A stretch of DNA of 64,000 nucleotides from Candidatus Latescibacterota bacterium (GCA_965205485.1 OZ242180.1:2880001-2944000), one strand, 5' to 3'; positions 3 to 15,309 are shown, counted from the stretch's first letter. A program made the numbers and translations. Notes: generated from the letters alone by a model not told the origin.

Positions 3-1247
3 TCATCGTGGGGGTTCATCCTGTCCCTGGGCGTGTCCACGCCCTTTGTCGCATTGGCTGACGGGAAAGGCGTTGCGGGCGTTGCCCCGGCCGACCCTGC
101 GCTCCAACGGTTCGTGCAAGCGGTGGTCGACGCAAATCCACGCGTCAAGGCGGCTCGGGCCGCGCTGGAGGCGAGACGGAGCGATCGAGACGCCGCATCC
201 CGACCGCTTTACAACCCGGAAATCAATGCAGACTACGAAAGAACGCACGAAACCCGCTACTGGGTCGGCATCGGGTATACGATCGACTGGGGCGGTAAGG
301 GCAGGGCCCGCAGCGCGCTCGCGGAATCGGAGCGGCGTCTCGCCGAGGCGGCGGTCACCCTTGTACGCCGCGGCGTTGCCATTGACCTGCTGAACGGCCT
401 GGCCGCCCATCGGGCCGGCGTCGAACGCGACAGCCTGGCCGCGCGGCGCCAGAGGTTAATGTACGACTTCGCGGAGCTCGCGCAGCGCAGGTTCGAGACG
501 GGCGACGTGAGCCAGGTAGAACTTGATCTGGCGCGTCTTGCATCCGTGGAAGCGCGAATCAATAGAGCGACCGCGGCGGCTTCGCTTGCAGGAGCAAAAC
601 AGGCGGTCCGTGTTTTCGTTCCGGACCTCCCTCCGTCACAGTGGCCTTCGCTCTCTTCCTCTCTGCCGGACCTGCTCGATGGCACCGACGTTCAGTCCCT
701 GATCGAGGCGCTCCCGGAAGTCCTCGCCGCAACTCGCCGGGCGGATGCCGCCAAGGCCCTCGTTGAACTTCGCCGCAGGGAACGGCGACCGGATCCGACG
801 TTAAGCCTGGGTGGCGGCAGCGAGGCAGGCGACCGGCTCACGGTTGTGGAGCTGTCGATCCCGCTGCCGCTGCTCAACCGGTTCGGTGACGAAGTGGATG
901 CGGCCGCGGCCGAACACCGCGGGGCGCAGCAGGCCCGGGAAGACGTGGCGCGACGCGCCCGTGCCCGGCTGATCAGTGCGATGGAACGCTACCGGCTGGC
1001 GCGGACCGCGTGGGAAGACTGGCGGAAGACCGGACAGGCGAGCCTTGAGAGGCAGCGGGAACAACTGCGAAGGCTGTGGCAAGCCGGCGACATCGGCACG
1101 ACGGATTATCTTGTGCATGCCGGTAAGACGCTGGATCTCCGGAAAAGTGCGCTTGACCTGCGGGAAACGCTGTGGGGGGCGTGGCTGGAGTGGTTGTCGG
1201 CTTCGGGACAGGTGGACGCATGGATCGGTTTCACCGCGGACCGTTGA
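3..1247 (+). CDS. TolC/CzcC-family outer membrane efflux protein (probably 5'-truncated by the window edge)
   Basis: Frame is open from base 3. Ala/Arg-rich helical repeats, RRFETGDVSQVEL and LSIPLPLLNR motifs, first gene of a CBA-type operon. Confidence 0.85.
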   Translation, partial: SSWGFILSLGVSTPFVALADGKGVAGVAPADPALQRFVQAVVDANPRVKAARAALEARRSDRDAASRPLYNPEINADYERTHETRYWVGIGYTIDWGGKGRARSALAESERRLAEAAVTLVRRGVAIDLLNGLAAHRAGVERDSLAARRQRLMYDFAELAQRRFETGDVSQVELDLARLASVEARINRATAAASLAGAKQAVRVFVPDLPPSQWPSLSSSLPDLLDGTDVQSLIEALPEVLAATRRADAAKALVELRRRERRPDPTLSLGGGSEAGDRLTVVELSIPLPLLNRFGDEVDAAAAEHRGAQQAREDVARRARARLISAMERYRLARTAWEDWRKTGQASLERQREQLRRLWQAGDIGTTDYLVHAGKTLDLRKSALDLRETLWGAWLEWLSASGQVDAWIGFTADR

Positions 1248-1284
1248 ATCGTCGTATCGGGCGAATCGAGATGGAGAAACACCA

Positions 1285-2406
1285 ATGAACTCCAGGACAC
1301 TCGTTGCATTTTGCGTGAACCTGGCGATCGCTGCCCCTGTCTTTGCGGAGGATGCCGGCCACGGAAAGCCAGGAGGCGACGCGTCCGGAATAGTCGAACT
1401 GACCGCCGAGGAGCAGCGCGCTGCCGGCGTTGTTGTTGACCGCGTTTCACGACGGGCGTTGGGCGAGACCATTCGCGTGCCCGGGAACGTGGAGATCAAT
1501 ATGTACAGGTCCTCCCGGGTTACGCCCCGCATTACGGCTCAGGTCGTCGCACGCCACGTTATCCTCGGTGAATCGGTCAGCGCCGGCCAGCGGATGGTGA
1601 CGCTGTCCAGCGTAGCCATGGCGGAGGCGCAGGCTGAATTGATCGTTGCCAACCGGGAATGGGAACGTTCCAGGAGCCTTGGTCCGGAATCCGTGTCCGA
1701 ACGACGATACACGGAGGCGCGGGTCGCCCGACAGCTGGCGCTGGCCAGAGTTCTGGCCTACGGCATGACCGAGGCGCAGGCGGATGCGCTGATGAGTACC
1801 TCCGAGGCGGAAGGAGCCAGCGGCGTGTTCGATCTGCTGTCACCGCAGGACGGGACGGTTTTGCAGGACAACTTCATCGTAGGCGAACTGATTGAACCCG
1901 GACGCGTGCTGTTCGATATCAGTGACGAATCCGTAATGTGGGTGGAAGCCCGTCCGATCGCCGTGGGCGTGCCCGATATCCACACGGGCGTGCCGGCCCG
2001 GGTCACTCCCGATGGCGTGAACTGGATTGACGGCAAGGTTGTTCAACGCTACCACCGCGTGGACGAGACCACCCGCACCCACGGCGTTCGCATCGAAGTG
2101 GACAACGCGGACGACCAGTTGCACGAGAGGCAGTTCGTCGAGGTAGAGATCGTAACCGGAAGCGGGGATACGGTGTTGGCTGTGCCCAGCGCCGCGGTGA
2201 CAATGATCGGTAACACACCTACCGTGTTCAAAGTCGAGCACGGTCATGAATTTCACGCGGAATCCGTTGTTTCAGGTCCTACCGTAGGCGACTGGACGGC
2301 TGTCTCGGCCGGGCTTCGCGAGGGGGACGTGATTGCGGTCGCCGGCATATTTCATCTCAAATCGCTGATGCTCAAGTCCTCGCTGGGCGGCGGCCACGCG
2401 CACTAG
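1285..2406 (+). CDS. CzcB/CusB-family RND periplasmic adaptor subunit
   Basis: ATG at 1285 after GGAG, signal-peptide-like N-terminus, SPQDGTV and VDETTRT motifs, LAVPSAAV, His-containing C-terminus (GGGHAH). Confidence 0.88.
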   Translation: MNSRTLVAFCVNLAIAAPVFAEDAGHGKPGGDASGIVELTAEEQRAAGVVVDRVSRRALGETIRVPGNVEINMYRSSRVTPRITAQVVARHVILGESVSAGQRMVTLSSVAMAEAQAELIVANREWERSRSLGPESVSERRYTEARVARQLALARVLAYGMTEAQADALMSTSEAEGASGVFDLLSPQDGTVLQDNFIVGELIEPGRVLFDISDESVMWVEARPIAVGVPDIHTGVPARVTPDGVNWIDGKVVQRYHRVDETTRTHGVRIEVDNADDQLHERQFVEVEIVTGSGDTVLAVPSAAVTMIGNTPTVFKVEHGHEFHAESVVSGPTVGDWTAVSAGLREGDVIAVAGIFHLKSLMLKSSLGGGHAH

Positions 2407-2415
2407 GGGAACAGG

Positions 2416-5400
2416 GTGCTGGATAAACTGGTTGAAACCTCGGTGCGCTACAAAGTCCTCGTCCTCATCGCATTCGCGGTGGTCGCCTTTCTGGGGTGGC
2501 GCGCGTATGTAACCGTCCCGATCGATGCTTTCCCCGACGTGACACCCGCCCAGGTCAACATTTACACCGAATCGCCGGGTCTGGCCGCGGAGGACGTCGA
2601 ACAGCTTCTCACCTTTCCCATCGAATCCGGTATGGCGGGCTTGCCGAGGGTGCAGCAGATCCGCTCGGTCAGCCTGTTCGGTCTGTCGTACGTGGCGGTG
2701 TATTTCGAAGACGACATGGACATCTACTTTGCTCGTCGCCTCGTAATGGAACGCCTCCAGGAAGTCGGAGACCGGATTCCCGAAGGTTACGGCACGCCGG
2801 AGATGGGGCCGAATTCCTCGGGCCTGGGCCAGGTGTTCTGGTACACGCTCGAGCGGGCGGATGAAAAGCTCAACGCCGACATCTCGGACATGGATCTGCG
2901 GACGCTCCACGACTGGAGCGTCCGCCTGGTTTTGCGCACGGCGCCAGGCGTGGACGACGTGATTTCCTGGGGAGGCCAGGAGCGCCAGTACCAGGTGGTT
3001 ATGCATCCGTTGAGTCTCATTGAATACGACCTCACCTTCACCGACGTCATCGAAGTGATCGAGGCCAACAACAGGCAGGTCGGGGGTCAATACGTCAACC
3101 TCGGCGCAGAGCAGTTTCTCGTGCGCGGATTGGGCCTGGTCGCGAACGAAGAGGACATCGGCGCAATGGTCCTCAAGGTAGAGGACGGCACGCCGGTCTA
3201 CCTGCGCGACGTCGCGGACATTGTACAGGGTGGCGCCCTGCGTTTCGGCGCCGTGACCCGCGACGGTAAGGAAGTCGTGCTGGGTATGGCCCTTTCGCGC
3301 ATCGGCGAAAACGCCGCTAAGGTGGTCGATGCCGTAAAAGAGAAAGTTGCAATCGTCAACAGGTTGCTTCCGGAAGGCGTTATCCTGCGTCCCGTTTACG
3401 AACGCACGGACCTGGTGGAGCGATCGGTGAACACGGCGAGAAACGCACTTGTGCAGGGCGCTGTTGTGGTGGCCGTCGTGTTGTTTCTCTTTCTCGGCGA
3501 ACTGCGTTCGGCAGTGGTTGTGATCGCGTCCATACCGCTTGCGATGCTGGTCGCCTTCATCTTCATGGGTCAGGCGGGACTCTCTGCGAACCTGATGTCG
3601 CTGGCCGGCCTCGCGGTTGGGATCGGCATGATCGTCGACGGCGCCGTGGTCGTGGTCGAGAACGCCTTTCGCATTATGGCGGAGCAGAAGGAAGCCGGTC
3701 AGACCGTCGACCGTTCCCGCGCCGTGCTGGCCGCCGCGCGAAGCGTGGCGAATCCGATTGCCTTCGCCATCATTATCATCATTGTGGTGTTTCTACCGCT
3801 GTTTGCGCTTGAGGGACTCGAAGGAAAACTGTTCAAGCCCATGGCATTCAATATCAGCTTCGCGATGGCCGGTTCGCTCGTGCTGACGCTCACGCTGATC
3901 CCTGTGTTGGCCGCACTGATCCTCAAGCCGAAGGAGCAGCGCGATACGTGGCTCGTACGCGCGGTCAGGGCGTGGTATATCCCGCTCCTGTCCGGCGCCC
4001 TCGCGAACAAGAAGGTCGTGGTCCGTGTCGCCGTGGGGCTGTTGGCGGCAAGTCTCGCGCTCTTTCCCTTTCTCGGCAGGGAGTTCATGCCCCAGTTGCA
4101 GGAGGGCTCGATCATGTGGCGCGTCACGTCCATCCCGTCCGCGTCGCTCGAGCAGTCGATTGCAATTTCCAAGGACATTGAGAACGCCCTGTCCGGGTTT
4201 CCGGAGGTCAAGACCACCGTGGCCATGATCGGACGCGCCGAAAAGGGCGAGACGGCAGACGTAAACTACATGGAGATCTATACCGAACTCAAGCCCGAAG
4301 ATGAGTGGCCGGGCGACAGGGACATCGGGGAACTCGCAGTAGCGATGCGGGAGAAACTGGAACTCGTGGTACCCACGGCCGTCGTGGCGTTCACGCAGCC
4401 GATCCAGATGCGGGTGGAGGAACTCATATCCGGCGTTCGCGCGACGCTTGCCGCAAAGATCTACGGTGAGGACCTGTCGGAACTCGACCGGTTGAGCTCC
4501 CGGGTCAAGGATGTCATTGCCTCTGTCGACGGTGTGGCCGACCTGTCGCTCGAGGCCAATGTCGGCAAGCCGCAGATCCGCATCCAAGTCAGGAGAGACC
4601 GCCTTGCGCGCTTCGGTATGAACGCCGACGATGTGTTGTCGGTTGTGCGGACGGGTATCGGCAACGAACCGGTGTCTACCCTGATCGACGGCGTCCGACG
4701 GTTCGACATCACCGCACGACTGGAAGACGCGTCCAAGTCCTCCGTGCAGGCGATCGAGCGCATCCCGCTCAAGACGCCCACCGGCGCCATCATTCCCCTT
4801 TCGGAAGTCACCCACGTGAGCGTGGCGCAGGGATATTCGTTCGTGCGACGGGAGCAGCTGTATCGTTACGCCGTCATTCAAATGGACGTCCGGGGCCGCG
4901 ATATCGACGGGTTTGTCCGCGACGCGAACGCGGCCATTGAGAGACTCGTCGACCTGCCGCCGGGTTACTGGATCGAATGGGGTGGCGCGTTCGAGAATCA
5001 GCAGCGCGCGCTGGCGCGACTGTCGGTAATCGTTCCGCTGACAATTTTCTTTATTTTCGTGCTGCTGTACACGGCGTTCAATTCGGTGAAATATGCCACG
5101 TTGATCATCGCAAACGTGCCGTTTGCCACGATCGGGGGACTGATCGCGCTCTTCATCAGCGGACAGTACGTGTCGGTGCCCTCGGCAATCGGATTCATCG
5201 CCGTGTTCGGCGTGGCGATGCTGAACGGCATCGTTCTCGTCAGCTTTATCAACGAACTCAGGCAGCAGGGCCATTCCGTCGAAGAAGCGGTGCGGCAGGG
5301 CGCGGCGCTCCGCCTGCGACCCGTTCTGATGACCGCGAGTACGTCCATCCTGGGCCTGATGCCGATGTTGCTGTCTTCGGGTGTGGGCGCCGAGACGCAG

Positions 5401-5520
5401 CGTCCGCTCGCTTCCGTTGTGGTGGGCGGTCTCATCACCTCGACCCTGTTGACGCTGGTCCTCCTGCCGGTGATCTACGAGTGGATGGAAAAACGCGCCG
5501 AACGTCGGGCGAAACTGTAA
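2416..5520 (+). CDS. czcA: CzcA/CusA-family heavy-metal efflux RND permease
   Basis: 1034 aa with PIDAFPDVT, GMIVDGAVVVVEN, EGKLFKPMA and RLRPVLMTA motifs. Confidence 0.93.
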   Translation: MLDKLVETSVRYKVLVLIAFAVVAFLGWRAYVTVPIDAFPDVTPAQVNIYTESPGLAAEDVEQLLTFPIESGMAGLPRVQQIRSVSLFGLSYVAVYFEDDMDIYFARRLVMERLQEVGDRIPEGYGTPEMGPNSSGLGQVFWYTLERADEKLNADISDMDLRTLHDWSVRLVLRTAPGVDDVISWGGQERQYQVVMHPLSLIEYDLTFTDVIEVIEANNRQVGGQYVNLGAEQFLVRGLGLVANEEDIGAMVLKVEDGTPVYLRDVADIVQGGALRFGAVTRDGKEVVLGMALSRIGENAAKVVDAVKEKVAIVNRLLPEGVILRPVYERTDLVERSVNTARNALVQGAVVVAVVLFLFLGELRSAVVVIASIPLAMLVAFIFMGQAGLSANLMSLAGLAVGIGMIVDGAVVVVENAFRIMAEQKEAGQTVDRSRAVLAAARSVANPIAFAIIIIIVVFLPLFALEGLEGKLFKPMAFNISFAMAGSLVLTLTLIPVLAALILKPKEQRDTWLVRAVRAWYIPLLSGALANKKVVVRVAVGLLAASLALFPFLGREFMPQLQEGSIMWRVTSIPSASLEQSIAISKDIENALSGFPEVKTTVAMIGRAEKGETADVNYMEIYTELKPEDEWPGDRDIGELAVAMREKLELVVPTAVVAFTQPIQMRVEELISGVRATLAAKIYGEDLSELDRLSSRVKDVIASVDGVADLSLEANVGKPQIRIQVRRDRLARFGMNADDVLSVVRTGIGNEPVSTLIDGVRRFDITARLEDASKSSVQAIERIPLKTPTGAIIPLSEVTHVSVAQGYSFVRREQLYRYAVIQMDVRGRDIDGFVRDANAAIERLVDLPPGYWIEWGGAFENQQRALARLSVIVPLTIFFIFVLLYTAFNSVKYATLIIANVPFATIGGLIALFISGQYVSVPSAIGFIAVFGVAMLNGIVLVSFINELRQQGHSVEEAVRQGAALRLRPVLMTASTSILGLMPMLLSSGVGAETQRPLASVVVGGLITSTLLTLVLLPVIYEWMEKRAERRAKL

Positions 5521-6823: not shown

Positions 6824-7888
6824 GTGGCAAGGGGACGCAGAAAAAGCCCTGAACGGTCAGGTTCGGCGAATGTGTCCGGGGGTGCAGTACGGGCGGCGAT
6901 TTATGGAACCGGTGCGTGGGCGAACCAGACCCACATTCCGAACCTGAAGAAGCTGGGCGTGGACGTCGTGGCAGCCTGCGACGTGGATGCCGAGGCCCTG
7001 CGACGTACGGCGGAGCGTTTTGAGATCCCGGCGGTCTATGCCGATGGTCGCGAAATGGTAGAGAACGAGCGGTTCGATGTGCTCTATTCGATTGTGCCCG
7101 CCTTTGCCCGCACGGACGTCGAAATCAGAGCCGTGGAACGCGGAATTCATCTGTTCAGCGAAAAGCCGCAGGCGCTTCGGATGGCCGTGGCGCTCGAGAT
7201 CGACCGGGCGGTCAGGAACGCGGGCGTGTTGAGCACGGTCTGTTTTCGGGAACGGTACCGACCGCTCTTCGGGGAGGCGCGGCGGATACTTTCCGATAAG
7301 CGGATCGTACACGTCGTGTTTCGATCCGTGGGCGGGCCGCCGCCGCGCAAGGAGGGAGTGGAACAGGCTTCCTGGTGGCGCCAGACACACAAATCGGGCG
7401 GTCCGGCGCTCGACTGGGGCGTGCATGCCGTGGATTACATCCGGTTTGCGACGGGATTGGAAGTCGAAAAAGTCCAGGCGTTCTATTGTGAGCAGTCCGA
7501 GGTCTTCAGCGAACCGCTCTCGTCCTCCTTCCATTTCCTGCTGAACAACGGCGCGACGATGGCGATGACGTTCGTACGTGCGGACCCGTCCGGAACACCG
7601 CAGCCGTGGTTCACGTTTTTCTTCGAAGGCGGACGACTGGAGATCTACAGTTACGACAGGATCGATCTGAACGGAGAGACGGTGTACCGCTGCGGGGAAT
7701 TCGATCCCTGGTTCGAGCAGGATCGGATCTTCGTTGAGGCGGTGCGTTCCGGTGATCGCGAAGGGATCCTGAATGATTATCACGATGGACTGTATTCCCT
7801 GGCGCCGGTTCTCGCTGGTTGGGACTCTGCCCGGCAGGGCGGTCGATGTATTGACCTCAAGGCCTACTTCAGTCAGGAGGGACATTGA
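6824..7888 (+). CDS. Gfo/Idh/MocA-family oxidoreductase (start uncertain)
   Basis: AAIYGTG Rossmann start, HLFSEKP, GGPALDWGVHAVD. Confidence 0.85.
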   Translation: MARGRRKSPERSGSANVSGGAVRAAIYGTGAWANQTHIPNLKKLGVDVVAACDVDAEALRRTAERFEIPAVYADGREMVENERFDVLYSIVPAFARTDVEIRAVERGIHLFSEKPQALRMAVALEIDRAVRNAGVLSTVCFRERYRPLFGEARRILSDKRIVHVVFRSVGGPPPRKEGVEQASWWRQTHKSGGPALDWGVHAVDYIRFATGLEVEKVQAFYCEQSEVFSEPLSSSFHFLLNNGATMAMTFVRADPSGTPQPWFTFFFEGGRLEIYSYDRIDLNGETVYRCGEFDPWFEQDRIFVEAVRSGDREGILNDYHDGLYSLAPVLAGWDSARQGGRCIDLKAYFSQEGH

Positions 7889-8721
7889 TGGAAGATAAGG
7901 GATATGCGAATCCCGATCTGCTGATGACGCCCGCGCAGTTGCATGTTCGCCTCCAGGACGCGTCGATATGCATTGTGGACGTCCGGCCCACGCACGAGTA
8001 CGTTTCCGCGCACATCCCGGGGGCGCTGCACCTGGACCTCTACGGTATCAGCCTCAATAACACCGGACGAGAGGCATTCGATGCGTTTATGTGGACGCTG
8101 GCCTACCTGATGGGAAGCCGGGGGATCAGCTCGGATACGACGGTGGTGTTTTACGAGAACGATTCCGGAATGCGCGCGGCCCGAGGTTTCTGGATCTGTG
8201 AATATCTGGGTCACCGCGACGTGCACGTTCTGGACGGGGGGCTTCATGCCTGGACGGCGGCGGGATTCGAGACCACGGTTGAAGTCCCTGTCCCGGTTCA
8301 GGCCACGTTCGCGATGGCGCCCGACGAGACGCGCCACATCGGATTCGAAGAGATTCGGGATTCGCTGGGGAAAGCCGATTTCGTGCCGCTGGATACAAGG
8401 AGCGACGACGAGTATTACGGTCGGGTGGCGCGTTCGGCCCGTGGCGGCGCCATTCCCGACGCGGTGCATATCGAATTTCTGGAAAATCTGGACGAGTCGG
8501 GTGAATTCAAGCCCGCGACGGAGTTGCGCGAAATGTACGAGCGGGCTGGCGTGACGCAGGAGCAGACGGTGGGGTGTTACTGACAGGGCGGGTACCGTTC
8601 CTCCCATTCGTACCTGGCGTTGCGCCTGCTGGGTTATCGAAACGTGCGCAACTATATCGGGTCGTGGAAGGAGTGGGGCGACCGGCTGGATCTGCCGGTG
8701 GAAGTTCCGGAGGCAAGGTAA
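7888..8721 (+). CDS. Tandem-domain rhodanese/sulfurtransferase, probable selenoprotein (in-frame TGA at 8581-8583, codon 232)
   Basis: [29 protein letters not shown] and GAIPDA motifs. After VGCY-TGA the frame continues [32 protein letters not shown] to TAA at 8719-8721. The TGA sits at the catalytic Cys position. Confidence 0.88.
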
Positions 8722-8790
8722 TCGGATCGGGGCAGATTGACGAGTCCTGAGACGTCGCCCGGGGTGTGGCGACGGGGGGACGGGATGACT

Positions 8791-9264
8791 TCAGACCCCT
8801 CCCATTTCACAGACGACTTCAAAGTCTGGTTTCATGACGGGCTGGACGGATAGACGCTGGCCCCGCCGGACAACCAGCATTTCACCCAGTTCAGGATTGG
8901 CCTTGAGGTCTTTAAGACGAACATACGTCTTGAAGGCCTTTTTCCATTTGACGTCGACGGAGTACCAACGGGGATCGTCCGGCGAGGATTTGGCATCGTA
9001 GTAGTTGCTCTCCGGGTCGAAGGCCGACGGGTCGGGGTAGGCCGCCCGCACGATTTCCGCCAACCCCGCAATGCCGGGTTCGTCACAATTTGACTGATAG
9101 AAGAGGACGATGTCGCCCGTTTGCATATCGTCCCGGATGAAGTTTCGGGCCTGGTAGTTGCGAACGCCGCGCCACTTTCCGGTGCTGTTCGGCCGTTTGT
9201 TCTTCAGGTCGTCGAAGCTGCATTCGCTGAATTCGCACTTCATCAGCCAGTATCTTGTCGGCAT
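8791..9264 (-). CDS. EVE domain protein
   Basis: YWLMK, W.GVRNYQARNF, GD.VLFY.S, YPDP.AFDP...YYD.KS and RLSVQPV motifs; GAGGAG RBS. Confidence 0.92.
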   Translation of the reverse strand: MPTRYWLMKCEFSECSFDDLKNKRPNSTGKWRGVRNYQARNFIRDDMQTGDIVLFYQSNCDEPGIAGLAEIVRAAYPDPSAFDPESNYYDAKSSPDDPRWYSVDVKWKKAFKTYVRLKDLKANPELGEMLVVRRGQRLSVQPVMKPDFEVVCEMGGV

Positions 9265-9314
9265 AATCTCCTCGTATACAATTGGGGCGCGGCGCAATCC
9301 GCGCGTTTTTTCGT

Positions 9315-12745: not shown

Positions 12746-13828
12746 CTACCCCCAAACTTCCTTGAGGAATCGGACCCAGTTGCCGGAGAGGATGTTGCGA
12801 ACGTCAGGTTCGTCGTAACCGCGGCGCTGGAGGATGCCGACCAGGTTCTGAAGATCGGCAATGGTGTTGAGGTCGCGCGGGGACTGTTCCTGTCCGAAGC
12901 CGCCGTCCAGGTCCGTTCCAATGCCGGCATGCCGCGAATTGCCGGCGAGTTGGCAGACGTGATCGATGTGATTGGCTACGGTCTCGAGGGTGGCATTCGT
13001 GCTCTGGGCCCAGCAGGGAATCTCACGATTCCAGTCCGGATCCAGCATCCAGGCATCGAATGCGGCGCCGATCACGCCGCCCCGTTCAACGATGGCCGCG
13101 ATCATCTCGTCGGTAAGCTGGCGCTGGCCGGGGGTGAGTGCCCGGCAGTTGTGGTGGGAGGCGGCCACCGGTCCGTCGTAGACGTCGAGGATTTCCCAGA
13201 AGGCCTGGTCTGTGGTGTGGGTGAGGTCGACGACAATCCCCGCTTCCTTCAATGCATCGAGCAGGGGTTTGCCGCGTTCAAGGAGGCCGCCCTCGGTGCC
13301 CGTTCCGTGGCAATATGAGCTGACGCCATAGTGGGAAATACTCACCATGCGGAGGCCCAGATCGTACCATTCGGGAACCTGCGTCGGGTCCAGGATCGGG
13401 TCGGCGCTTTCCATGGCCACCACGAGACCGATGGGCGTATCCGGCGCGGGGTTTTTCCAGGCGGCCACTGTTTCGTCCAGGTCCCGTGAATTGCGGACGA
13501 TACGTACGACGCCTTCGCGTTCCATCGCCTGATAATAGGCGAGGTGGCCTCTGCCCACGCCGTGACACTGGTCCTGGCAATACATCCCGGTGCGGGTCCA
13601 ACGGTCGTTGGGGTCGGTTCGGGACATCATCGTGCCGAATATGATGCCCACGTTACCCCGGCGGAGTTCTGGAAAGGTCACGGTACAGCTGCCGAAACTG
13701 CGCATGACGGGTTCGGCGTCGTGGACGCGGACGGTCGCGGCCGGCTGCGTGAGGTCCCGGTTGACCTGAATGGCGCTGAAACCGAGGTCAAGGTGGCTGT
13801 CTGCGATAAGGTACGGGCGGTCCGGCAT
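12746..13828 (-). CDS. Membrane dipeptidase (peptidase M19) family protein
   Basis: DSHLD, ESAD, DLTH, ASHHN, GGVIG and GIGTDLDGG motifs. Confidence 0.9.
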   Translation of the reverse strand: MPDRPYLIADSHLDLGFSAIQVNRDLTQPAATVRVHDAEPVMRSFGSCTVTFPELRRGNVGIIFGTMMSRTDPNDRWTRTGMYCQDQCHGVGRGHLAYYQAMEREGVVRIVRNSRDLDETVAAWKNPAPDTPIGLVVAMESADPILDPTQVPEWYDLGLRMVSISHYGVSSYCHGTGTEGGLLERGKPLLDALKEAGIVVDLTHTTDQAFWEILDVYDGPVAASHHNCRALTPGQRQLTDEMIAAIVERGGVIGAAFDAWMLDPDWNREIPCWAQSTNATLETVANHIDHVCQLAGNSRHAGIGTDLDGGFGQEQSPRDLNTIADLQNLVGILQRRGYDEPDVRNILSGNWVRFLKEVWG

Positions 13829-13894: not shown

Positions 13895-15028
13895 TCAGTT
13901 CCACGACTCTTTGAAAAACCGGATCAGATTCCCATGACAGATGTTGTCGATGTCTTCAGAATTGTATCCGTGTGCTTCCAGGATGTCGGGAAACCGCTGG
14001 AGGTCAACGATGGTATTGTAGTCCGTGGGCGAGAGTTCCAGGCCGAATCCACCGTCAAGGTCCGTCCCAATGGCCACGTGGCGGCTGTTGCCGGTGAGTT
14101 GGCAGATGTGGTCGACGTGTTCGACCACCGCCTTCATCGGCCGTGTGGCAGTGGTGTAATGCGTTGAAGGATCGTCCCAGTCCCAGGATGGGCTGAGCAT
14201 CTGTTCTGCGAAGACCATTCCGATGACGCCGCCGCGATCCACAATAGCCCGAATCATCTCGTCGCTCAGGTGCCTCTGGCCGCGCAGGAGCGCACGGCAG
14301 TTGCAGTGGCTGGCGTGGACCGGTCCGTCCCAGTAATCCAGGATCTGCCAGAACGTCAGGTCCGAGGCGTGGGTGAGGTCGATGACCATGCCCGCGTCTT
14401 TAAAGGCGTCCATCAGGGGGTACGCCGGCGGGTAGAGTCCGCCCACCGTGCCGGTGCCGTGGCCGTACGTGTTTGCGCCGAAGTGGGTGAGAGATACCGA
14501 TCGCAGGCCGGCGTCCCACCAGTCTCCCACCTGGTCGGGCCCCAGGATAGGGTCGGCGCTTTCGGCGGTCAGAATCAGGCCGATCGGCGTTGTGTCCGTC
14601 GGGTTGTGCCAGGTTGCCACGCATGCGTCCAGGTCGGCGGAATCCCTGATGAAGGTGATTTCGCCCCGTCGGGCGAGCGCGTTGTAGTAGTGGAGGTGGC
14701 TCTGGCCCCTCGCGTATGCGACCGACTGGGCGCGGACGGAGTTGTGGGAGTCGATGGACGGGGCCTGAACGCGCGCCATGATGGTGGAGAGCATGATGCC
14801 GACGTGGCCCTCTCGCATCTCTGGCAGGGTTACGGTCACCGTGTAGCGCTTGTCCTCCAGGCCAGCACGTCGTTCCAGCGAGTCCTTATGGGTCGACAGG
14901 CCGGCGCGAACGACGTCTTCACGTTCGCGCAGCACATGCACCGGTTGCGTGAGGTCGCGCCTGTAGAACAGAGCGTTGAAGGCCATATCCAGATGGCCGT
15001 CGATGATGAGTACCGGTTTGTCGGGCAT
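13895..15028 (-). CDS. Membrane dipeptidase (peptidase M19) family protein, paralogue of 12746-13828
   Basis: DGHLD, ESADPIL, DLTH, ASHCN and IGTDLDGGFG motifs. Confidence 0.9.
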   Translation of the reverse strand: MPDKPVLIIDGHLDMAFNALFYRRDLTQPVHVLREREDVVRAGLSTHKDSLERRAGLEDKRYTVTVTLPEMREGHVGIMLSTIMARVQAPSIDSHNSVRAQSVAYARGQSHLHYYNALARRGEITFIRDSADLDACVATWHNPTDTTPIGLILTAESADPILGPDQVGDWWDAGLRSVSLTHFGANTYGHGTGTVGGLYPPAYPLMDAFKDAGMVIDLTHASDLTFWQILDYWDGPVHASHCNCRALLRGQRHLSDEMIRAIVDRGGVIGMVFAEQMLSPSWDWDDPSTHYTTATRPMKAVVEHVDHICQLTGNSRHVAIGTDLDGGFGLELSPTDYNTIVDLQRFPDILEAHGYNSEDIDNICHGNLIRFFKESWN

Positions 15029-15232: not shown

Positions 15233-15309
15233 CGGGGAGTGGCTCAGTCCGGCAGAGCACCTGCTTTGGGAGCAGGGGGTCGCGGGTTCGAATCCCGCCT
15301 CCCCGACCA
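15233..15309 (+). tRNA. tRNA-Pro (anticodon TGG)
   Basis: CGGGGAG/CTCCCCG acceptor stem, D-arm GCTC..GAGC, anticodon arm CCTGC-TTTGGGA-GCAGG, GGTTCGAATCC T-loop, encoded CCA. Confidence 0.97.

Follow-up and report, generated by a model that had tools for sequence, protein, structure and literature searches.

A distal hairpin bridged by a long-range helix as the probable selenocysteine insertion signal of a tandem-domain rhodanese from Candidatus Latescibacterota

How is an in-frame TGA read when it falls on the catalytic codon of a sulfurtransferase gene and, if it specifies selenocysteine (Sec), which part of the mRNA directs the recoding? Both questions are raised by a rhodanese gene of Candidatus Latescibacterota bacterium, located in a 64,000-nucleotide (nt) stretch of its genome (GCA_965205485.1, OZ242180.1:2880001-2944000; hereafter the window, from whose first letter positions are counted). 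In the list of open reading frames (ORFs) the rhodanese frame ended at this TGA. The initial annotation read through it and claimed a hidden Sec codon at the catalytic position of a 277-residue selenoenzyme. Translation confirms that the gene has a single in-frame TGA, codon 232, followed by 45 sense codons and the TAA at 8719-8721. The product would be a two-domain Sec rhodanese, and its recoding is quite probably directed by a distal hairpin, H2, which a covarying long-range helix, H1, is predicted to bring near the ribosome; this assessment rests on comparative sequence analysis.

The comparison uses the best 80 of 331 related stretches in species genomes, mostly titled Latescibacterota and Poribacteria; together with the window they comprise 74 Sec genes and seven Cys genes. 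The closest loci (82-91% identity) are titled Latescibacterota, Gemmatimonadota or uncultured bacterium. Codon 232 is TGA in 73 of the 80 loci, TGC in six and TGT in one; TAA and TAG do not occur there. Conservation of TGA at this codon is far beyond chance. The frame past the TGA stays open for 44-54 codons in every TGA locus, and it is 71-98% identical to the window vs 53-90% upstream. Homologues thus carry either TGA or Cys at codon 232 with both flanks conserved, which is the check that the initial annotation had proposed. Among the best 120 of 6021 database hits, 99 are full-length proteins with Cys at residue 232, 20 end exactly at that residue and one is unaligned.

The genome (5.13 Mb in one contig, 97% complete) holds the machinery for Sec insertion: selA, selB, selD and tRNA-Sec, all of which the initial annotation had named as genes to look for, are found over their cut-offs. 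selA, selB and tRNA-Sec lie adjacent at C1:3225171-3228695 (+), and selD carries an in-frame TGA of its own. The tRNA-Sec gene (3228602-3228695) begins inside the 689-codon open frame that holds selB and may overlap the end of selB. A tRNA search at the default threshold returns 48 genes, of which one has a UCA anticodon and matches the Rfam tRNA-Sec model (73.4 bits), and one is a Cys tRNA. TGA is the commonest stop, ending 651 of 1148 long open frames. Because only one of 48 tRNAs reads UCA and TGA ends so many long frames, the code is standard, without reassignment. Sec machinery, a codon 232 restricted to TGA and Cys, and a standard code together lend strong support to Sec232, and the in-frame UGA is almost certainly decoded as selenocysteine, judging from the comparative and genomic data.

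The other ways of accounting for the TGA fare poorly. Were it a true stop or a sequencing error, the gene would be truncated or a pseudogene, and the 20 database hits that stop at residue 232 are indeed catalogued as proteins of 230-232 amino acids. Yet the same codon recurs in the 73 loci across two phyla, the codons after it are better conserved than those before it, and truncation would take away the catalytic loop. Moreover, a contig from a public run, assembled rather than raw reads and possibly from the source sample, is identical to 7800-8603, TGA included, with no differences; another public contig (assembled, possibly from the source sample) covers 7903-8633 with one difference at a place that is not displayed. 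The 80-locus codon comparison effectively refutes this explanation, which retains next to no probability. The enzyme could instead be of the ordinary Cys type if UGA were read as Cys or Trp, through a SECIS-dependent Cys tRNA (SECIS, selenocysteine insertion sequence), a suppressor or an altered code. For some bacteria, the accessible text of PMC13582414 describes tRNA-ReC, which decodes UGA as Cys in a SECIS-dependent manner. However, the tRNA complement at the default threshold, with no tRNA-ReC model searched, offers a single UCA tRNA that matches tRNA-Sec and a single Cys tRNA, and the prevalence of TGA as a stop speaks against a changed code. Such decoding is very improbable.

Where, then, does the recoding signal lie? 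According to the bacterial SECIS model (Zhang and Gladyshev, 2005, as summarised in the accessible text of PMC13188914), the loop has 3-9 nt and the stem 4-16 base pairs (bp), G occurs in the first two loop positions, the free energy is at most -7.5 kcal/mol, and 16-37 nt separate the UGA from the apical loop. A hairpin test for perfect helices is passed by 0 of 74 Sec genes at the canonical spacing of 16-37 nt. At 95-110 nt, it is passed by 73 of the 74 Sec genes and by none of the seven Cys genes. In the window, the hairpin found at that distance is H2, whose spacing is 103 nt in 71 of 74 Sec genes; it meets the rules for loop (7 nt), stem (6 bp), G (UGG) and energy (-10.2 kcal/mol) and fails only that for spacing. 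Other TGA genes of the same genome, selD and two more, have canonical hairpins at spacings of 17, 24 and 31-32. The beginning of the H2 loop, C-UGGA, is invariant in the 74 Sec genes, and Leu267, the residue whose codon carries it, is encoded by CTG in all 74, while only 34 of 99 Cys homologues have Leu there. H2 is thus the predicted SelB-binding site, and probably the correct one; the initial annotation overlooked this displaced signal. Many single-sequence folds also contain a hairpin at +5 to +22 (RNA numbering, in which +1 is the T of TGA); it would lie under the ribosome.

H2 does not stand alone. Synonymous variation, compared across 2274 distant pairs of Sec genes, stays at 0.87-1.13 of the expected level through codons 1-225; it is lower in codons 226-234 (0.70), 235-243 (0.72) and 262-270 (0.60). 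Four of the top five covarying column pairs (102-118, 18-93, 103-117 and 21-90) are Watson-Crick pairs of H1 or H2, and compensatory changes occur at 18-93 and 21-90 in H1 and at 102-118 and 103-117 in H2. In 72 distinct rows, 97.6% of cells are paired in H1 and 95.2% in H2, and two-sided changes number 105 cells vs 1-17 in slid controls. Because kin inflate covariation counts, changes were also placed on a tree built from upstream codons only: 18-93 has five shared changes (rank 1 of 1114 pairs), 103-117 three (rank 2), 21-90 two (rank 6) and 102-118 two (unranked, as one of its columns changes only twice). A weaker inner helix, 39-45/66-72, may form within the H1 loop; 82.7% of its cells are paired, and on the upstream-codon tree it is indistinguishable from background.

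Both helices are complete in 65 of 74 Sec genes vs 0.1 expected under synonymous resampling. In folding predictions with +1 to +14 held unpaired, H1 has a probability above 0.5 in 74/74 Sec and 2/7 Cys genes, and H2 in 72/74 Sec and 0/7 Cys genes. These comparisons demonstrate selection on both predicted helices in Sec genes and its loss in Cys genes. Rfam has no match in 7800-8900. Covariance model R1 also scores Cys genes and the RAAH-type genes described below; since it mostly captures coding sequence, it is no test of the fold. The Tyr codon before the UGA (8578-8580) is TAC in 72 of 74 Sec genes, with synonymous variation at 0.13 of expectation. This preference, which neither H1 nor H2 explains, is a possible 5' context effect on recoding.

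A second group of Sec rhodaneses, found in metagenomes and named RAAH-type after the residues behind the active site, uses another signal. The search pattern fixed amino acids and left third codon positions free. Eighty of 120 stretches were listed, and 68 remained after removal of five duplicates and seven that failed the C-terminal motif. All 68 have a GGC-loop hairpin at spacing 17 that starts at +13 to +15 (63 at or below -7.5 kcal/mol), and none of the 68 has H1 (at least 10 of 11 pairs) or a full H2. Of the seven stretches dropped for the motif, one is no rhodanese and the other six share this canonical hairpin. The distal position of the signal in the window clade is likely due to a coding conflict: the RAAH-type hairpin is written into the R-A-A-H codons, and the window clade encodes R-S-S-H. 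In a tree of 63 of 100 rows, midpoint-rooted and with Cys relatives of the RAAH clade unsampled, the RAAH-type Sec forms fall together (100%), outside a group that mixes the window clade with Cys forms. The Sec label needs five changes within the mixed group, in agreement with either repeated loss of Sec to Cys or several gains. The approximately unbiased test does not reject a common origin of Sec in the two clades (p-AU 0.45); both relocation of the signal and its independent invention are therefore compatible with the tree.

How might a hairpin so far downstream act? Once the UGA has reached the A site, the 11-nt spacer would be covered by the ribosome and H1 would stand at the mRNA entrance, where canonical stems start, with 56 nt looped out. 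Because H1 begins 11 nt after the UGA, it would survive there. H2, joined to the 3' strand of H1 by a 4-nt linker, would land about where a canonical hairpin would and offer SelB its GG loop 6 bp above the base, as in the canonical element. SelB bound to this loop would deliver Sec-tRNA, and the ribosome would then melt both helices. We regard it as fairly likely that the two helices form a natural bacterial SECIS of new architecture, with the SelB hairpin moved 100 nt down and bridged by a helix that begins exactly 11 nt after the UGA. In tandem rhodaneses, Cys is the nucleophile that carries the sulfur. In the same way, Sec232 would accept sulfane sulfur from thiosulfate, a persulfide or a similar donor, and the resulting selenylsulfide would hand it to a thiol or another acceptor.

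Several observations weigh against a bridged distal SECIS or against its use for Sec. Both Sec insertion and SelB binding are predictions from sequence. Among the 50 of 80 genomes given to the selA search, selA is found in 42 of 43 with a Sec gene and in all seven with a Cys gene, so it does not discriminate the two kinds; with this count, reversion to Cys through loss of the Sec machinery is unsupported as well. Folding stability is unremarkable in this region (z = -1.42), and 18 of 200 shuffled versions do as well. The loci are related to one another, and only a few compensatory events are independent: five, two, two and three for the four pairs. Eight of the 18 stem pairs of H1 and H2 never vary and are largely fixed by the protein. 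In one Cys gene with TGC, L089 (5595-5723), the 11 pairs of H1 are all intact and the H2 loop is retained, although one H2 stem pair is broken; the protein tree places this gene outside the Sec-containing clade, and it may be a relic, a recombinant or a pre-adapted state. Two of the dropped RAAH-type rows, L109 (904-1032, +) and L174 (798-926, -), have all six H2 pairs beside the canonical hairpin, in L109 as a GG-loop hairpin at spacing 103 with -9.2 kcal/mol; these pairs may be due to chance or mark intermediates. Finally, the hairpin test accepts perfect helices only and is not bSECISearch, and the window has a near-passing hairpin at ordinary distance: 7 bp, a G-first loop, spacing 35 and -7.4 kcal/mol, just short of the -7.5 rule.

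This last hairpin, or a bulged form that the test misses, could be what SelB binds, with H1 and H2 serving pausing, mRNA stability or regulation instead. The codon of Leu245, TTG in 63 of 74 Sec genes, is in keeping with a SECIS at ordinary distance. However, the spacing-35 hairpin reaches -4 kcal/mol in only 11 of 74 Sec genes and does so in two of seven Cys genes, its first loop base falls in codon 244, which is GCA in 16 of 74, no two-sided change supports it, and 500 of 500 shuffles pair equally well. H2, by contrast, has an invariant GG loop and is lost in Cys genes; a signal at ordinary distance is thus unlikely. A different proposal concerns the enzyme. The initial annotation suggested that Cys230 and Sec232, as a C-x-U motif, could allow a resolving selenenylsulfide step and that the gene is part of a catabolic operon with the Gfo/Idh/MocA oxidoreductase gene upstream; the enzyme would then act as a thiol oxidoreductase. 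The window does have the TGATG overlap of the two genes (7886-7890), and so do nine of the 11 loci with an upstream Gfo/Idh/MocA orthologue; Cys precedes Sec by two residues in 38 of 74 Sec forms, the window included. The remaining 36 Sec forms have Pro (20) or Ser (16) there, whereas Cys occupies the position in six of seven Cys loci and, among the 99 full-length Cys homologues, in 14. These counts lead us to reject C-x-U as a redox motif linked to Sec. Cys230 is a clade trait that does not track Sec in the aligned genes, so a resolving role cannot be general, and the residue lies inside a beta-strand of the structural model. Nor does the protein belong to the CxU rhodanese family NF041203, whose model it matches with 43.8 bits vs a cut-off of 115. 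The Gfo/Idh/MocA neighbour is absent from 69 of 80 loci, including the close relative L034, which keeps its Sec gene; the 11 loci that have it are all among the 12 closest, and a twelfth match (L047, 28% identity, 5 kb off) is a paralogue. The overlap behind the proposed translational coupling is real, but the catabolic operon is not borne out; the proposal as a whole is quite unlikely.

The reading of the product as a tandem rhodanese is supported by domain, alignment and fold (Table 1). The read-through protein has two PF00581 Rhodanese stretches, and a six-frame search of the genome shows the second to span the TGA. Codon 232 matches the Cys of the HCQTHHR loop in the Azotobacter vinelandii sulfurtransferase 1E0C, and the six-residue active-site loop, with Sec in the place of its initial Cys, and the C-terminal GSW.EW signature are both present in alignment to 1E0C, 1UAR and 8K55 and as invariant columns. 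An AlphaFold model from an alignment of 67 sequences has a predicted local distance difference test (pLDDT) score of 96.8, against 35 with single-sequence input. In a Foldseek search, it reaches template modelling (TM) scores of 0.86 to 1UAR and 0.84 to 1E0C, and the top ten rows are tandem rhodaneses (TM 0.82-0.86). No NCBIfam model exceeds its cut-off for the read-through protein: the 3-mercaptopyruvate sulfurtransferase equivalog NF008557 gives 101.8 bits, below its curated cut-off of 250.

Table 1. Positions of the rhodanese gene, its predicted RNA helices and adjoining features in the window.
Feature	Position	Strand	Remarks
Gfo/Idh/MocA oxidoreductase, upstream neighbour	6824..7888	+	start picked by hand; its TGA overlaps the rhodanese ATG
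Shine-Dalgarno-like AGGAGG	7875..7880	+	7 nt 5' of the rhodanese ATG
Tandem-domain rhodanese, SseA/COG2897-like sulfurtransferase	7888..8721	+	277 amino acids with TGA232 read as Sec; Pfam, alignment, fold
Cys230 codon	8575..8577	+	not conserved among Sec forms; strand 227-231 of the model
Putative Sec232, in-frame TGA	8581..8583	+	catalytic Cys position; codon aligned to Cys of 1E0C, 1UAR, 8K55
Active-site loop U-Q-G-G-Y-R, UxxG motif	8581..8598	+	translation, invariant columns
H1, 5' strand	8595..8607 (+15 to +27)	+	long-range helix; begins after an 11-nt spacer
Region enclosed by H1, 56 nt	8608..8663	+	weaker inner helix 8619-8625 with 8646-8652 possible
H1, 3' strand	8664..8676 (+84 to +96)	+	overlaps the S-W-K-E-W signature codons
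Hairpin H2	8681..8699 (+101 to +119)	+	6-bp stem, 7-nt loop UGGAUCU (8687-8693), C-G closed, 103 nt after UGA; proposed SelB-binding element

The gene belongs to a Sec rhodanese family predicted computationally since 2005, of which it is a new, database-truncated member. The accessible text of the Sargasso Sea selenoproteome study (Zhang et al.) reports a rhodanese-related sulfurtransferase family, COG2897, with three genes, and the corresponding part of its supplement gives the loops YuQAGVR and Y-U-QGGIR. The available portion of the Olavius study adds three more COG2897 Sec-sulfurtransferase genes, a 2022 review lists the family as COG2897/SseA in the text available, and a 2026 review, in its accessible part, as form 4, UxxG, predicted and unverified (PMC13188914). 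Like these proteins, the product of the window gene is predicted by computation only; as in theirs, Sec takes the catalytic position in a Y-U-Q-[AG]-G-x-R loop, and the C-terminal rhodanese signature comes after it. By contrast, published COG2897 and RAAH-type members are only 26-44% identical to the window protein over near-full length, and RAAH-type members carry the canonical hairpin 17 nt after the UGA (68/68) where the window clade has R-S-S-H and the distal element; the window clade is closer to Cys enzymes (51-69% identity). One locus, L165, resembles by eye the published fragment AACY01016424; over 163 amino acids it shares 28% identity with the window protein.

Among characterised structures, 1E0C, which we take to be RhdA, and the Thermus thermophilus rhodanese 1UAR share the tandem fold, 32-34% identity and a catalytic Cys at the position of U232. 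Both are Cys enzymes with other loops (CQTHHR and CRIAER vs UQGGYR), so their substrates cannot be transferred directly. NF041203 (rhodanese form 3, rhodanese_LYCAU, CxU) is likewise a rhodanese selenoprotein with Cys two residues before Sec; it is however a short single-domain model of 126 positions, and, judging from the family name, Cys rather than Sec would follow the Tyr there, whereas the window protein has two domains. As for the RNA, H1 shares its starting point with the canonical stems observed in this comparison (+13 to +15), while H2 lies far beyond the canonical 16-37 nt and is predicted to depend on a long-range bridging helix inside the coding region. A SECIS engineered into a 3'-untranslated region in E. 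coli, reportedly by Su, Li and Gladyshev in 2005, is a precedent for a SECIS acting from further downstream. That element was artificial and outside the coding region, unlike the natural, conserved, coding signal with its bridging helix proposed here.

Neither the window clade nor a natural bacterial SECIS that is distal or bridged turned up in the literature search, whose range excluded subscription journals and BSepDB entries; the variant of the recoding signal is well supported and apparently unpublished. According to the accessible texts of PMC13326102 and PMC13188914, 12.6% of catalogued bacterial selenoprotein genes lack a canonical SECIS, for reasons unexplained. If the proposal is true, it breaks the rule that a bacterial SECIS must directly follow the UGA and could explain part of these genes. 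One protein family would then use two solutions to Sec recoding, according to the amino acids after the active site, and in the bridged form the residues next to the active site would be freed from the constraint of Sec insertion. Gene finders that rely on the SECIS would overlook one class of genes, and the design of recombinant selenoproteins could profit from a hairpin located outside the active-site codons. The system has built-in controls in the Cys forms without the fold and the RAAH-type relatives with a canonical hairpin, and because the key pairs are mostly at synonymous positions, tests of the model can leave the protein unchanged.

The surroundings of the gene vary by lineage, and a conserved operon is rejected. 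Despite the overlap with the upstream gene, the rhodanese has its own AGGAGG; comparable stretches of purines stand before the start in the 14 closest loci displayed. A promoter and terminator scan gave nothing useful for the rhodanese gene. At other loci the upstream gene encodes a MATE transporter (11 of them), an aldo-keto reductase or a different product. A Cys/Met pyridoxal-phosphate enzyme (15 Poribacteria loci) and MoeA (eight loci) lie downstream but on the opposite strand, convergent with the rhodanese. Gene order gives no substrate for the enzyme. Its most persistent neighbour is an EVE-domain gene, at 8791-9297 (-) in the window, convergent with the rhodanese and within 6 kb of it in 22 of 80 loci, distant Latescibacterota included. 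A three-gene cluster at 33-5520 (+), presumably an efflux system of the resistance-nodulation-division (RND) type with an outer-membrane component, an adaptor and a 1034-residue transporter, is found near eight of the 12 closest loci and is absent from the other four. Further along, two similar genes in tandem (12746-13828 and 13895-15028, +), which we assume to be membrane-dipeptidase-like, directly precede tRNA-Pro (15233-15309).

Two blind scans of the genome for further TGA genes were noisy. Outside the window, C1:2012661-2013980 (+; L108:362-1684) encodes an M20/AbgB-like amidohydrolase with an in-frame TGA in the motif HG-x-GHN, at a position that is Cys in HmrA (3RAM). Among 31 genomes, all 29 matches have one TGA, and in all 20 loci fetched it lies at this motif, with a conserved hairpin. 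The family is missing from the 119-family table in the accessible text of PMC13188914, and a literature search returned no relevant title; it is likely a non-redox selenoprotein family. Another gene, at C1:4952665 (+; L107:223-810), encodes an AhpD-like protein with a C-x-x-U motif, which exceeds the TIGR01926 cut-off when read through; it belongs to a known selenoprotein family and has a canonical hairpin at spacing 24.

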